Source: Escherichia phage SP27. Taken from it: 64,000 bases of DNA. Below are positions 52,411 through 60,077 of this stretch, piece after piece (the stretch's first letter is position 1; each line of letters starts with the position of its first letter). The notes below the pieces were generated by a model. The model did no database searches, was not told where the DNA came from, and saw only the letters and a program-made list of their open reading frames with translations. The DNA is taken from sequence record LC494302.1; one strand, written 5' to 3'. The position numbers and the translations under genes were made by a program.

Positions 52411-53106
52411 ATGGTTGAACAATTCATGTTTGGTGGTTATGCTAATGGCGAAGTACGTAACATTTCTATTCCTTACGTAGTTGAGAAAGTTAATGGTTCA
52501 GAACGTACATATGATCTAGCATCTCGTATGATGCAAGACCGTATCATTTTCCTTGATACTGATTTCAATGATCAAATGGCACATATCATCAAACAACAAT
52601 TGGTATGGTTAGACTCACAAGGTGATTCCCCTATTACATTCTACATTAGTTCACCGGGTGGTTCAGTACACGCAGGTTTGGGTATTGCAGACGTTGCTAA
52701 GTCTTGTATTTCGCCAATTCGCACTGTAGTAATGGGCTATGCAGCATCAATGGGTTGCTATACACAATCTGTTATTGGGACTAAAGGTTTCCGTTTAGGT
52801 GGTAAACGCTCATACTTCATGTGTCATCAAGTAAGTTCTGGTACACAAGGTCTAATTACAGACCAGAAGATTTCCCTACAACATTCTGATGCACTGAATA
52901 CATTGTTGACCAAAGAAATTGCAGAAGCTGTAGGTGTATCACATGAACAATTACTAAAAGATGCTGACCGCGATTTGTGGTTAAATGCAGAAGAAGCACT
53001 TGAATATGGTGAACATGGTTTCATTGATGGTATTATTCTTGGACCACGTAACGAAGAAGGCAAGTACTTAGTTAAGCGTCGCGGTGGTGTAGAAGAGTGG
53101 GTGTAA
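52411..53106 (+). CDS. clpP: ClpP-like serine protease subunit
   Basis: ClpP signature ERTYDLASRMMQDRIIFL, SPGGSV, MGYAASMG. Confidence 0.85.
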   Translation: MVEQFMFGGYANGEVRNISIPYVVEKVNGSERTYDLASRMMQDRIIFLDTDFNDQMAHIIKQQLVWLDSQGDSPITFYISSPGGSVHAGLGIADVAKSCISPIRTVVMGYAASMGCYTQSVIGTKGFRLGGKRSYFMCHQVSSGTQGLITDQKISLQHSDALNTLLTKEIAEAVGVSHEQLLKDADRDLWLNAEEALEYGEHGFIDGIILGPRNEEGKYLVKRRGGVEEWV

Positions 53107-55783: not shown

Positions 55784-56161
55784 TTAACCAGGGAGGTTAC
55801 AATAATACAAATCCCAAGGGTGATATTTCATCGCACCAGTACTCAATTTAATTTTATGAAACTGGAATGATTCGGCAAATGCACTATCGTCAATCTTAAT
55901 ACAAAAAGTGTTTTTGGCTAGAGTTGGTGCAATTTCCAATGCTGTTTTAGATGCATCTAATCTAATTTTATCTTTATCATAACTAGTGATAGTTACAAAA
56001 CGATAAACATTAAAATCAGTATCAATGAGATCGTAAACACAACTAGAACGTTGATTAAAGATGTTCAAGTTATATTTCAATTCACCGTTTATATTAGCTG
56101 CGGTTACACAAAACCCGCCGATATTGAATGGTAGTTTACCTTGTGCTGCGATAGCTTTCAT
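55784..56161 (-). CDS. hypothetical protein (only convincing minus-strand gene in window)
   Basis: 125-aa ORF in a gap free of plus-strand ORFs, convergent on the bidirectional terminator. Confidence 0.5.
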   Translation of the reverse strand: MKAIAAQGKLPFNIGGFCVTAANINGELKYNLNIFNQRSSCVYDLIDTDFNVYRFVTITSYDKDKIRLDASKTALEIAPTLAKNTFCIKIDDSAFAESFQFHKIKLSTGAMKYHPWDLYYCNLPG

Positions 56162-56386
56162 ATTTTATTTCCTTTTTTAAATATAAGTATGAAATATATT
56201 TGTTTTTTACATCAGATGCACCATGAACTAGTTGACAAAACATCAGTGGTATGATATGATCTGTTATAAACTGTACACCTTAAGTTTTATTTTTAAAAAT
56301 TTGAGTTAAGTACAGAAAAAGTTTGACTTAAGTGTTTAAGTACTATATTATTTATATCTTCCTAAACAAAATTGAGGACTTGTTAT

Positions 56387-56995
56387 ATGAAAAGACTATG
56401 GCTTGAAGTGATACAAGCAGCAATGTTTCTATTGTTAATAAATTTTCCAGCCAGTGCTGGTATTGAAAGTAAAAATGTGATAAAGTATAATCCTGAAACC
56501 CGAAATGTATATTTCATATCAGATATTACAGATGGGTCACTCAAGAGAATGATAGAGTTGTATGATAAAGAACACTATGATACCATCACAATTACATCTC
56601 CTGGTGGTGATTTTGATGCAGGTATTCGAATGGCAAACTTTGTTAGAGACAATGGGATAAATTTAATTGTTTCTAGGTATTGCAATTCAGCATGTACTGT
56701 GGTATTCTTTAGTGTATCTCCCGAAAAGCGATATATGACAAATCGCTCAGTACTGGGTCTTCATAACATTTCGATTAAAAGTAATGTTACTGATGGTGAT
56801 AATTCATTTGTGTCTGTAAGACAGCTATCAACTTTTACCGAAGAAATGGCAACAAAGGTAGGTTTCCTTTTTTCACTATATGCAGCAAATGGAATCCCAC
56901 CAGAAGTTCTATTTAGAGTTAGTCGTTCTCGTGGTGAAGATGTTGTAATATTAACAAAACCAGAACTGGTTTTTTACGGTTCAGTCAAACAATAA
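56387..56995 (+). CDS. secreted ClpP/S49-fold serine peptidase-like protein
   Basis: signal-peptide-like N-terminus ending ASAG; TSPGGDFDAG motif. Confidence 0.6.
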   Translation: MKRLWLEVIQAAMFLLLINFPASAGIESKNVIKYNPETRNVYFISDITDGSLKRMIELYDKEHYDTITITSPGGDFDAGIRMANFVRDNGINLIVSRYCNSACTVVFFSVSPEKRYMTNRSVLGLHNISIKSNVTDGDNSFVSVRQLSTFTEEMATKVGFLFSLYAANGIPPEVLFRVSRSRGEDVVILTKPELVFYGSVKQ

Positions 56996-57065: not shown

Positions 57066-57326
57066 ATGACAAACATCCAAAACTTGACATCTATTATTTT
57101 TTATGCTACTGTAGTAATGTATGCTACAGTTATTTTTCTAACAGTTTTCATTTACAAAGATTATCGTAATGGCTTTATTGATCCAACTACAATGAAGTTC
57201 AATTCAAAATTCGAAGCAATAATTTATTATGTACTATCAACTTCATACTTGGTGTGCCTAATGTTGTTAGGAGCACTAATTTATATCTTATACACAACAT
57301 TATTTGCAATTGGAGCTATTTTATGA
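57066..57326 (+). CDS. small membrane protein
   Basis: 86 aa, three hydrophobic segments; ATGA overlap with next gene. Confidence 0.55.
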   Translation: MTNIQNLTSIIFYATVVMYATVIFLTVFIYKDYRNGFIDPTTMKFNSKFEAIIYYVLSTSYLVCLMLLGALIYILYTTLFAIGAIL

Positions 57327-57916
57327 CCTGTATTATTGCACACACTGACGGAGTAAGTTCTTTTATTGCTGGCGATAAGTTAGGAAGCAATGGATTTACA
57401 AAAACTGTTCAAACTGAGCCAAAGGTATTCGAGAAAGAATTTATCAAGTTACATGATGATGGACTAACTAGAACTAAAGAAGTAATGGCATTGGGTTATA
57501 CTACATCATTTCGTATGGGTCAGTTGTTAAATTATAACCTTAATTTACCTGAACAAGCTGCTGGTCAAACATTTTCACAATATTTGGTTCTTAAAGTTAT
57601 TCCAATCATTCGTCAAATGTTTAAAGAAGAATGGGGTTCACGAGATGCATCACAAGATGTAGGTGGTGGACAATTTATCATTCTCCACAATCATACAATC
57701 TATGAAGTTCAAGAAGACTTTTCAGTACTACAACCTAAAACAAGAATTACCGCAGTAGGTAGTGGGACATATCATGCAATTGCAGCAATGCAAGCATATA
57801 TTGAAGTTGAGAACGAATCTAAAAAACCACTACACGAACGTATCAAATCAATTTTTAAAATTGTTAGTGATAATGTAACAAGCGTAAGCGAAGAGTTTGA
57901 TGTTTTAAAATATTAA
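57323..57916 (+). CDS. HslV/proteasome beta-like Ntn hydrolase
   Basis: Thr at position 2 (MTCIIAHTDG..IAGD) and AVGSGTYHAIAAMQAY resemble HslV TTIV..IAGD and GSG..YA.AAA segments. Confidence 0.7.
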   Translation: MTCIIAHTDGVSSFIAGDKLGSNGFTKTVQTEPKVFEKEFIKLHDDGLTRTKEVMALGYTTSFRMGQLLNYNLNLPEQAAGQTFSQYLVLKVIPIIRQMFKEEWGSRDASQDVGGGQFIILHNHTIYEVQEDFSVLQPKTRITAVGSGTYHAIAAMQAYIEVENESKKPLHERIKSIFKIVSDNVTSVSEEFDVLKY

Positions 57917-57943: not shown

Positions 57944-58138
57944 ATGATGGCATACACAATTTATGAATGGGTTTTGAGTTTTTTTATAGTTTTTTCTATT
58001 GTTGTAATTTATAACAATGCTAAATGCTTATATAGGGACTTGAAATCCAATGGTTATCACAAAGATAATAATTTTATGTATGCCTATCATATTGGAATCA
58101 TTCTGTTATTATCAATATATTTAATTGTTTTTTTATAA
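57944..58138 (+). CDS. small membrane protein
   Basis: 64 aa, two hydrophobic segments. Confidence 0.5.
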   Translation: MMAYTIYEWVLSFFIVFSIVVIYNNAKCLYRDLKSNGYHKDNNFMYAYHIGIILLLSIYLIVFL

Positions 58139-58147
58139 GGATTGAAT

Positions 58148-58900
58148 ATGATATCAGAAAAATTTATAAGAAATGAAGGTAAAAAGCGATTACTGATTAT
58201 ATCAGGTGCAGGACTTTCTGTTGAAAGTGGTATGGAACCTTTTCGATTTGATGATGGTTTGTGGGATACATTTAAAATTAATGATGTATGTAACATTGCG
58301 AGTTTAACTACAAAATATCATGTTGTTCATTCTTTCTATAATACATTACGTGTAAAATTGGGACAATGCGAACCGAATGCAATGCATTATTTTATAAAAT
58401 CGTTAGAAGATCAATATGGTGATTGCTTCCTTCATATGACTTCTAACATGGACGATCTTTATACTCGTATTGGTGGTCATGAGCTTAAACTTCATGGAAA
58501 CTTGTGTGAAGTTATTGAAAATTATAGTATCAATTCCGATGATTATAATGTTATTAACTGCGGATACGAACCATACATACCAAAACATGATGTTTTTGCT
58601 AAACCAAATGTAGTAATGATTGGAGAATATCATCGTTATGTTGATGGTATTCGCTTACCAATTTACGAAGAACGAAATAATGTGTTGAAATCTCTTAATG
58701 AAAATGATACAGTTATTGTAATTGGTAGTAGCGATACAGTACTGGTATGGTCGAGATTAGCAGCAGCATTGCCATGTTATAGTGTTAATGTTAACATTCG
58801 TAAAAATGATAATGATTTTTTGTTTAATGAAAAAGTTATCAAGCCAGCAACCAAAGCAATACCGCATCTAGAGACTATAATTAAGGAACGTATGAAATGA
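58148..58900 (+). CDS. Sir2-like NAD-dependent protein (sirtuin family)
   Basis: GAGLSVESGMEPFR (Sir2 GAGISxxSGIPxFR), LHGN catalytic His motif, VIVIGSS. Confidence 0.7.
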   Translation: MISEKFIRNEGKKRLLIISGAGLSVESGMEPFRFDDGLWDTFKINDVCNIASLTTKYHVVHSFYNTLRVKLGQCEPNAMHYFIKSLEDQYGDCFLHMTSNMDDLYTRIGGHELKLHGNLCEVIENYSINSDDYNVINCGYEPYIPKHDVFAKPNVVMIGEYHRYVDGIRLPIYEERNNVLKSLNENDTVIVIGSSDTVLVWSRLAAALPCYSVNVNIRKNDNDFLFNEKVIKPATKAIPHLETIIKERMK

Positions 58901-59448
58901 GTGTTAAAGAAGTTCCCTTTGGTGAATATGGCACACGTGCAAATTTTGTATTTTGTTATTTCTTTGCAAGAAAATGCAACCCTTACAAAAACTATGAGTT
59001 GAATGATATACCAGAAGTAAATTTAGTATTACTGCAATTACGATGGGATGGTCTTCTTGGTGGATGTGGTGGAACCGTAGAAAGTACTGATATCTCACTA
59101 GAAGATGCGTTGCGTCGTGAAGTTCAAGAAGAAATGGATTACAATATTTTTGTTTCCCATCTTCGACCACTCAAAACTTTTGAAATTTACCCAGGTGCAA
59201 ACAGTCATAGTTTTAGCTATGAAGTGAGCTATGACGAGTTGAAACACATTAGAGATGGATACACTAATGCTAAACATGCAAGTGCAGAAGTTGCTGGTGT
59301 AAATTTATGTCATATTTCTCGTTATTCTAAGGGACAAAATCGAGAAGCGGGATATAATAATCTTATGACACAGAACTTCATCGGTACAGCAAAACAAGAA
59401 TTGGAGTATCTGGTTCAAAAAGAAAACTTACTAATTAGTTATCTATAG
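58897..59448 (+). CDS. Nudix hydrolase
   Basis: Nudix box GGTVESTDISLEDALRREVQEEMDY; ATGA overlap with Sir2-like gene. Confidence 0.8.
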   Translation: MSVKEVPFGEYGTRANFVFCYFFARKCNPYKNYELNDIPEVNLVLLQLRWDGLLGGCGGTVESTDISLEDALRREVQEEMDYNIFVSHLRPLKTFEIYPGANSHSFSYEVSYDELKHIRDGYTNAKHASAEVAGVNLCHISRYSKGQNREAGYNNLMTQNFIGTAKQELEYLVQKENLLISYL

Positions 59449-59457
59449 GAGTTTAAC

Positions 59458-59778
59458 ATGTCTTACTCAATGTTTTTGGATGATATTCGTGATGCAAATC
59501 TATATTATCCAAACCAAGATATGGTGGTATGTCGTGACTTTAAAAGTGCATGTGAATATGTTATTGAAAATGGAATTCCAGCATTTGTATCATTCGACCA
59601 TGACTTGGGTGATGTGAGCGAAGACGAAAAGACTGGATATTCTTTTGCTAAGTTTCTTATTGATTATATGTTTGATAATAATATTAAAGAACCGTTTGAG
59701 TACTTTGTTCACAGTAGTAATCCTGTTGGTAAAATTAATATTGAAACATACTTAAACAATGGATTTAACGCATTATGA
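59458..59778 (+). CDS. hypothetical protein
   Basis: 106-aa ORF. Confidence 0.55.
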   Translation: MSYSMFLDDIRDANLYYPNQDMVVCRDFKSACEYVIENGIPAFVSFDHDLGDVSEDEKTGYSFAKFLIDYMFDNNIKEPFEYFVHSSNPVGKINIETYLNNGFNAL

Positions 59779-60077
59779 TTCAAACACACATCAAAAGTCT
59801 TATTTGTACTGTTCTGTTAGGTGCAGGAGTTCTTTGGTTCGGACAGTATCACGAGAACACTAAGCGTACCAACATTCACTACAATACCGCAGAAGTTGTT
59901 AGTTTAGGACAATGTAGCGAGTCCAAATGTTCATTTATGTATAAAACCCAAAATGGTGAAGTACGTAATGGACTATCAAGAGAACCAGTTTCAATTGGTC
60001 AACTTGTTTACCAGGAGTGCTGGGAAGAAAAGGTTCGAGGTTCACGTTGCTATGTTGAATACGAACCAAATATGTAA
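59775..60077 (+). CDS. hypothetical membrane-anchored protein
   Basis: N-terminal hydrophobic segment LICTVLLGAGVLWF. Confidence 0.55.
   Translation: MIQTHIKSLICTVLLGAGVLWFGQYHENTKRTNIHYNTAEVVSLGQCSESKCSFMYKTQNGEVRNGLSREPVSIGQLVYQECWEEKVRGSRCYVEYEPNM

Follow-up and report, generated by a model that had tools for sequence, protein, structure and literature searches.

We find that a gene on the plus strand of Escherichia phage SP27 (positions 56387..56995 of a 64,000-nucleotide stretch of sequence record LC494302.1, henceforth the window) probably encodes an early, Sec-exported peptidase of the ClpP fold, which uses a Ser/His pair, works independently of ATP and is active in the periplasm. The coding sequence runs from an ATG at 56387 to a stop codon at 56993-56995, exactly where the original prediction, made by a model from the letters alone, had placed a secreted ClpP/S49-fold peptidase-like protein, and it specifies 202 amino acids that open with MKRLWLEVIQAAMFLLLINFPASAG. 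Direct reading of the sequence reveals a GAGG ribosome-binding site (56374..56377, plus strand) 9 nt 5' of this ATG, and homologues begin with MK(R). We therefore take ATG 56387 as the start, rather than a rival TTG at 56372 that lacks a ribosome-binding site. By comparative sequence evidence the open reading frame (ORF) is a genuine gene: tblastn detects it in 49 phage records (at full length and at least 99% identity in 19), its product matches phrog_26024 ("protease") end to end (E 4e-119), and the ratio of nonsynonymous to synonymous substitution rates (dN/dS) relative to the orthologue of phage 121Q is 0.105, indicating purifying selection.

Rule-based and comparative evidence suggests that the protein is exported via Sec. 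Residues 1-24 (56387..56458, plus strand) form a predicted Sec signal peptide composed of an n-region MKRLWLE, an h-region VIQAAMFLLLINF and a c-region PASA, with predicted cleavage between ASA and G. The n-region is positive (MKR), the h-region comprises 13 uncharged residues (V8-F20, with a best 10-residue Kyte-Doolittle window of 2.5), positions -3 and -1 are small and there is no Pro at +1, which by rule is the anatomy of a Sec pre-protein processed by signal peptidase I. The sequence FPASA is invariant in close homologues. We also applied a signal rule, which asks for K/R in the n-region, a hydrophobic 10-mer free of charges and small residues at -3 and -1, to the 123 ATG-started ORFs of at least 80 amino acids in the window, and it passed this protein and one false positive, a Sir2 Rossmann motif. 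With two passes among 123 ORFs the rule is selective, and thus the signal is not a mere consequence of AT-rich composition. The phage's own canonical ClpP has no comparable N-terminal segment.

The predicted mature domain spans residues 25-202 (178 residues; 56459..56992, plus strand), and structural modelling assigns it to the ClpP/crotonase fold with high confidence. An AlphaFold2 model built from 17 homologues reached a mean predicted local distance difference test (pLDDT) score of 91.3 and a predicted template modelling score (pTM) of 0.79; an earlier model from 8 close sequences was mediocre (pLDDT 67). In the better model, a helix at residues 2-18 stands separate at the N-terminus and is followed by a low-confidence linker (residues 23-28) and then, from residue 31 on, by an alpha/beta domain with a 24-residue helix at 144-167. 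The ClpP alpha/beta fold with its handle helix is present. When the model was compared with the PDB using Foldseek, the best 50 matches were all ClpP (E about 1e-8, TM score 0.6-0.74). Sequence-based searches of the PDB were less informative: the single sequence retrieved chance matches only (alcohol dehydrogenase and green fluorescent protein (GFP)-like proteins), and profile searches retrieved marginal ClpP and NfeD matches and no solved structure of any family member. The original prediction had left the choice between ClpP, SppA and NfeD open; its fold class is borne out by the model and by Foldseek, but the S49 and NfeD options fall away, since the nearest family is ClpP (S14). S49 peptidases use a Ser/Lys dyad, and membership in S49 (SppA/SohB) was rejected because the Pfam scan of the protein returned no Peptidase_S49 match, the base is a His and the structural similarity is lower than to ClpP. 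NfeD proteases likewise rely on Ser/Lys, and they have multi-pass membrane domains as well as OB-fold domains. Membership in NfeD (1510-N) was rejected as well, on a score of 13.5 bits against a cut-off of 40 for NfeD1b_N (PF25145) and on a single N-terminal hydrophobic segment with no extra domain.

The motif TSPGGDFDAG, on which the fold had first been proposed, occupies residues 70-79, and its TSPGG part (residues 70-74; 56594..56608, plus strand) is the counterpart of the (I/S)SPGG loop of ClpP. Across 17 sequences with 25-52% identity to the window protein, S71, G73 and G74 of this loop are invariant, as are C99, S101, C103, H126, N127, Y165, G169 and P171. The putative nucleophile, Ser101, sits between the two invariant cysteines in C99-N-S101-A-C103 (56681..56695, plus strand), and the candidate general base, His126 (56762..56764, plus strand), lies in a GLHN motif. 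In profile alignments to ClpP of the PDB and to the phage's own ClpP, S101 coincides with the catalytic Ser and H126 with the catalytic His, and 182 of the 194 family domains that have a residue at the H126 column carry His there. No Lys is invariant among the 17 sequences. Since S101 and H126 are invariant on the ClpP positions and no Lys is, the machinery, as judged from these alignments, is a Ser/His pair with a third residue that is not fixed, and not an S49-type Ser/Lys dyad. Thus, the catalytic serine expected from the original prediction is there and invariant, but its lysine partner gives way to an invariant His at the ClpP position. The catalytic Asp of ClpP aligns at V186, adjoining E184/D185, and these positions vary between D, E, N, S and T within the subfamily. 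We considered the Asp of an RGED motif as the third member of a triad and rejected it because it is not invariant.

These residues bear on two alternatives to a working peptidase. One is that the protein is a dead ClpP-fold binding protein, a pseudo-protease exported to the periplasm, which would fit the unfixed third triad residue and the degenerate copies without Ser that occur in multi-domain bacterial relatives. However, the phage subfamily shows no variation at Ser101 and His126 and the family as a whole hardly any, and degenerate domains lose the two jointly, always within repeat proteins in which one copy or more is still intact; we regard this alternative as very improbable. The other keeps the Ser/His chemistry and proposes a substrate other than protein: as an esterase or amidase, the enzyme would act on an envelope component such as the acyl chains of lipoproteins or the stem peptides of peptidoglycan. 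The lack of the Asp and a C-terminal half that has diverged could be read in this way, but ClpP peptidases are the nearest neighbours in both structure and sequence by a clear margin and the Ser and His fall exactly on the ClpP catalytic positions, so that such a hydrolase seems improbable.

The nucleophile motif also has a signature of its own. C99 and C103 are the sole cysteines of the protein, and 191 of the 204 family domains that have residues at these columns read C-S-C. In seven further domains the Ser is gone and both cysteines are kept (C-D-C twice, and C-N-C, C-T-C, C-Y-C, C-R-C and C-G-C), both domains of one relative (P0028) have Ala in place of the pair (A-S-A), and the remaining four are strongly degenerate repeat fragments with one Cys left. 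As the cysteines persist in domains without Ser and are replaced together in P0028, they are conserved independently of catalysis and behave as a pair. In a strand-turn-helix nucleophile the -2 and +2 positions pack together, and ClpP has small residues, Ala and Gly, there. On the basis of the paired conservation and this packing, we predict a C99-C103 disulfide that staples the nucleophile elbow, as would be expected of a protein folding in the oxidising periplasm.

We searched 1.84 billion cluster representatives (50% identity) with a profile of the close homologues and recovered a family of 1,889 proteins at E <= 1e-3, 48 of them at E <= 1e-10. Phage-type members measure about 190-225 amino acids and have an H-N motif; bacterial members measure about 230-300 amino acids, have an H-G motif and follow the pattern (S/T)xGG ... 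YCxSSCANY ... G(W/F)HG. The two types are clearly homologous from the signal peptide through the core as far as the His (hhalign probability 99.8%, E 1e-27), beyond which the C-terminal half of the bacterial members is longer and unrelated to that of the phage type. The bacterial proteins come from Ferrimonas, Shewanella, Massilia, Glaciecola, Marinimicrobium and Campylobacteraceae, are all named "hypothetical protein" and have no precomputed Pfam domains, and Pfam and NCBIfam scans of eight bacterial-type and two phage-type members gave nothing above cut-off. An N-terminal hydrophobic segment is present in 130 of the 149 representatives retrieved (about 87%), 37 of these with a lipobox-like L-x-x-C, and many of the 19 without a signal are visibly truncated at the N-terminus. 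Lipoprotein signals put the domain outside the cytoplasm, which makes an extracytoplasmic location a trait of the family. The window protein has all of the family's features, namely an N-terminal signal, (S/T)xGG, C-x-S-x-C and a His 22-24 residues past that motif. The signal-peptide-like N-terminus noted in the original prediction therefore holds on two counts: it has the n-h-c anatomy of a Sec signal, and the homologous segment is a signal or lipoprotein signal in about 87% of the family examined. Some bacterial or metagenomic relatives (P0106, P0116, P0096, P0052, P0029, P0033 and P0028) contain two to five tandem copies of the domain. COG3904 ("predicted periplasmic protein") may cover the bacterial relatives.

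Upstream of the gene lie two sigma-70-like promoters on the plus strand. The proximal one (56323..56351) consists of TTGACT, a 17-nt spacer and TATTAT, and its -35 TTGAC and a TAxxAT -10 are conserved in five phages whose proteins are 42-92% identical. The distal one (56232..56260) consists of TTGACA, a 17-nt spacer and TATGAT with an extended -10 TG (11/12 matches); it is partly conserved in related phages and weak when taken alone. Promoter-like sites in the region are no more numerous than expected from shuffled sequence. No T4-late-type TATAAATA box was found upstream of the gene. A conserved sigma-70-type promoter without such a box points to early expression, presumably by the host RNA polymerase, and hence argues against a role at the time of lysis. 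The setting of the gene is that of metabolism: it lies outside any morphogenesis or lysis module, among genes for nucleotide and nicotinamide adenine dinucleotide (NAD) metabolism. Across Rak2-like phages the order is a canonical ClpP, several small ORFs, a deoxycytidine monophosphate (dCMP) deaminase, an immunoglobulin (Ig)-like structural gene on the opposite strand and the protease gene. In Asteriusviruses, the genes downstream encode an HslV-like peptidase flanked by two small membrane proteins, then Sir2 and Nudix; in RaK2, XaC1 and Hallingskeid they encode a cytidyltransferase and a nicotinamide phosphoribosyltransferase.

Taken as a mechanism, this reading would start with early expression from host RNA polymerase and Sec export of a pre-protein made up of the signal peptide and the 178-residue ClpP-fold domain. 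Cleavage between ASA and G would free the protein into the periplasm, with inner-membrane anchoring instead in some orthologues, and a DsbA-dependent C99-C103 disulfide would brace the strand-turn-helix that bears Ser101. Ser101 and His126 would then serve as nucleophile and base, with a third position (184/185) that varies between D, E, N and S, and peptide bonds would be hydrolysed without ATP or an AAA+ partner. We deduce this independence from the fact that neither ATP nor AAA+ partners are present in the periplasm and that the mature protein lacks the axial loops of ClpP. Indeed, the mature N-terminus lies six residues before the first strand, and the loops that dock AAA+ partners are missing.

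Several observations weigh against the reading of an early, exported and active peptidase. The Pfam model CLP_protease (PF00574) scores 17.5 bits, under its gathering score of 20.2. No acidic third triad residue is invariant, so that catalytic competence is not guaranteed. Our literature search found no transcriptome for this phage group, and the bacterial gene neighbourhoods contain no conserved partner gene that would hint at a substrate. At the N-terminus, the RaK2 orthologue and P0021 have no obvious A-x-A site and may be signal-anchored, and an invariant Glu7 just before the h-region and an invariant Gln10 within it represent unusual conservation for a signal peptide.

The N-terminal observations also suit an alternative in which the signal is never cleaved and the protease stays tethered to the inner membrane on its periplasmic side, as SppA, SohB and NfeD are. 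Besides the missing A-x-A sites in RaK2 and some metagenomic orthologues, the N-terminal helix with conserved E7 and Q10 is modelled at a pLDDT of about 90, and small membrane-protein genes lie downstream in all Asteriusviruses. Set against this are the FPASA of the Asteriusvirus-type subfamily, which never varies and combines Pro at -4 with small residues at -3 and -1, the small -3 and -1 residues in most other members and the cleavable lipoprotein signals of many bacterial relatives. Part of the family may well be anchored; as an account of the window protein we consider anchoring unlikely, though worth keeping in mind. An anchored enzyme would, with the same modest likelihood, cleave membrane-proximal substrates, for example remnant signal peptides, periplasmic domains of membrane proteins or phage membrane proteins.

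For a released periplasmic peptidase, the most likely substrate class is host periplasmic or envelope proteins or peptides, cleaved in the course of host takeover or of envelope maintenance over the long cycle of a jumbo phage. Candidate roles are specific cleavage of the host envelope, serving takeover, exclusion or counter-defence, and general proteolysis of periplasmic peptides or for quality control, as by SohB/SppA. The bacterial homologues stand alone, and two of the three contexts examined adjoin peptidases (M17, M20, M24) and TonB-dependent receptors, a weak hint at peptide catabolism. These contexts favour a maintenance enzyme, a peptidase of periplasmic peptides or misfolded proteins that would be a back-up analogue of SohB, SppA or DegP, sustaining envelope function or recycling peptides and echoing a nutritional or quality-control role of the bacterial relatives. 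That the phage also has a cytoplasmic ClpP and an HslV-like protease of its own suggests that it invests in proteolysis generally. The bacterial contexts are not conserved, however, and remain a hint only. We judge the maintenance role unlikely as it stands; it differs from the reading we prefer in biological role only. A more far-reaching proposal would treat the whole uncurated family as a clan-SK group of exported, ATP-independent Ser/His enzymes with an elbow disulfide; Rak2-like phages would deploy theirs early, in the periplasm, as an effector that cuts particular proteins of the host envelope. We find it possible but rather doubtful. If it were true, the targets might be, for instance, a receptor, a defence or stress sensor of the periplasm or something that superinfecting phages require, and the fast-changing first 42 residues of the mature protein would reflect adaptation to a target or partner.

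Some GenBank records (fEgEco12, vB_Ec-M-J, WPEC5) present the protein as a ClpP or head maturation protease, and a reading as a cytoplasmic ClpP paralogue or ClpP-type head-maturation protease finds weak matches in NCBIfam: Clp_rel_HeadMat (NF045542) scores 20.5 bits and the ClpP models score 15.6-24.9 bits, the top score being that of a ClpP subfamily. These scores are far under the cut-offs, which are 120 for NF045542 and 228-251 for the ClpP models (228 for the subfamily). Moreover, the protein starts with a signal sequence and lacks an axial-loop region, its neighbours belong to nucleotide and NAD metabolism and not to morphogenesis, and a genuine ClpP (141 bits) is encoded 3.3 kilobases (kb) upstream. 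The phAPEC6 virion proteome of 62 proteins speaks to the same point: gp346c, which is 100% identical to the window protein, is absent from it, whereas it does include gp347, encoded next to gp346c, and gp227c, a "prohead core scaffold and protease" of the T4 gp21 type whose gene adjoins that of the major head protein (PMC7247149). With gp346c missing from the virion and gp227c present there, the "head maturation protease" annotations are unsupported, and we hold this reading to be hardly credible. The head-maturation family NF045542 was accordingly rejected, on its sub-threshold score, the dCMP deaminase, HslV-like, Sir2 and Nudix neighbours and the absence from the virion proteome. Its prohead proteases do resemble the window protein in being phage-encoded and of ClpP fold.

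Comparison with ClpP (S14, PF00574) brings out what is shared and what is not. The catalytic Ser and His stand at canonical positions in the phage protein, but overall identity is about 15-20% and the profile match falls short of the Pfam gathering score. Where ClpP has axial gating loops, the phage protein has an N-terminal signal peptide and a first strand from residue 31; where ClpP reads A-A-S-M-G, it reads C-x-S-x-C; and the invariant Asp of ClpP has no invariant counterpart. ClpP is cytoplasmic and served by an AAA+ unfoldase, whereas the phage protein presumably lies outside the cytoplasm and would need neither ATP nor AAA+. Periplasmic serine proteases that work without ATP have a precedent in Prc/Tsp and CtpA (S41, clan SK) (PMC12419801). 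S41 enzymes differ in being large and in having a PDZ domain and Ser/Lys chemistry, and we saw no sequence match between them and the phage protein. Clan-SK peptidases already include the periplasmic SppA and Prc, so the phage protein is not a new category. It is clearly homologous to the unnamed exported bacterial family described above, with which it shares C-x-S-x-C, the spacing to the His and N-terminal signals.

Over the window, identity to Escherichia phage PBECO4 is 99.9%; this phage is an Asteriusvirus, a Rak2-like jumbo myovirus of about 350 kb. The gene has been deposited as gp097 of PBECO4 ("protease"), gp473 of 121Q ("protease (ClpP-like)") and gp346c of phAPEC6 ("hypothetical protein"), and its resemblance to ClpP is thus already on record in GenBank. 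We came across no earlier mention of the export signal, of the Ser/His chemistry, of the C-x-S-x-C signature or of the membership in a large uncurated exported family, and our literature search returned no paper on the gene or on an exported ClpP-like phage protease. Phage proteases are usually seen as capsid-maturation enzymes or cytoplasmic tools of host takeover. If exported and early, this protein would be a rare case of a phage protease sent into the host periplasm, and, if real, its C-x-S-x-C disulfide would show how a cytoplasmic ClpP scaffold can be adapted to an oxidising, ATP-free compartment. The gene offers an experimental handle on an exported ClpP-like family that has neither a Pfam or NCBIfam model nor a solved structure. 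The practical gain is modest, as GenBank records had annotated the fold before.

The gene is mosaic relative to that of phage UE-S1 (L011 2501-3106). Identity between the two proteins is 50% over the signal peptide, 7% over residues 25-66 and 86% over residues 67-202, and megablast similarity to UE-S1 and ph0011 begins exactly at codon 67 (query position 889). The breakpoint therefore lies within the gene, the variable part corresponds to positions 56459-56584, and the upstream neighbour in UE-S1 is not that of the window. The pattern reflects either recombination or fast divergence of the strand-strand-helix unit with which the mature protein opens. P0020 was absent from IMG/VR, and a related-locus search with the closer alignment returned only phage 121Q.

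Among the neighbouring genes, the ClpP at 52411-53106 (plus strand) is of the cytoplasmic type, matches PF00574 with 141 bits, has the Ser, His and Asp motifs and lies between DNA ligase/phosphoesterase genes and the dCMP deaminase, 3.3 kb upstream of the protease gene. Its RefSeq label, "head maturation protease", is probably wrong, given that the prohead protease of this group is T4 gp21-like (gp227c) and that the neighbourhood is not one of morphogenesis. The divergent gene at 55784-56161 (minus strand) encodes a 125-amino-acid Ig-like virion structural protein (phrog_33171) and sits as a solitary structural gene in this metabolic region; its phAPEC6 counterpart, gp347, was found in virions with 75% sequence coverage (PMC7247149). 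Immediately downstream of the protease gene, an 86-amino-acid ORF (57066-57326, plus strand) reads as a multi-pass membrane protein without a family match and shares an ATGA overlap with the gene for the HslV-like peptidase (57323-57916, plus strand). The latter begins with M-T, which would leave an N-terminal Thr after removal of the Met, and matches phrog_1040 (E 4e-24); it gave no Pfam or PDB sequence match. The pair formed by the membrane ORF and the HslV-like gene is kept in all Asteriusviruses examined.

Further downstream, a Sir2 gene (58142-58900, plus strand; PF02146, 73 bits) overlaps a Nudt16-like Nudix gene (58897-59448, plus strand; 68 bits). In RaK2, XaC1 and Hallingskeid (L004, L005 and L006), the same slot holds the cytidyltransferase, which is NMNAT-like, and the nicotinamide phosphoribosyltransferase, which makes the region an NAD-metabolism slot in all these phages. 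We take such a slot to be a possible counter-measure to NAD-depleting defence. PADLOC defence models matched neither the protein nor its neighbours, save for one weak Nudix match. Two more small genes on the plus strand encode membrane proteins by sequence, one of 64 amino acids (57944-58138) with no match and one of 100 amino acids (59775-60077) that matches phrog_14661 ("membrane protein"), so that several genes for small membrane proteins lie scattered among those for the protease, Sir2 and Nudix.

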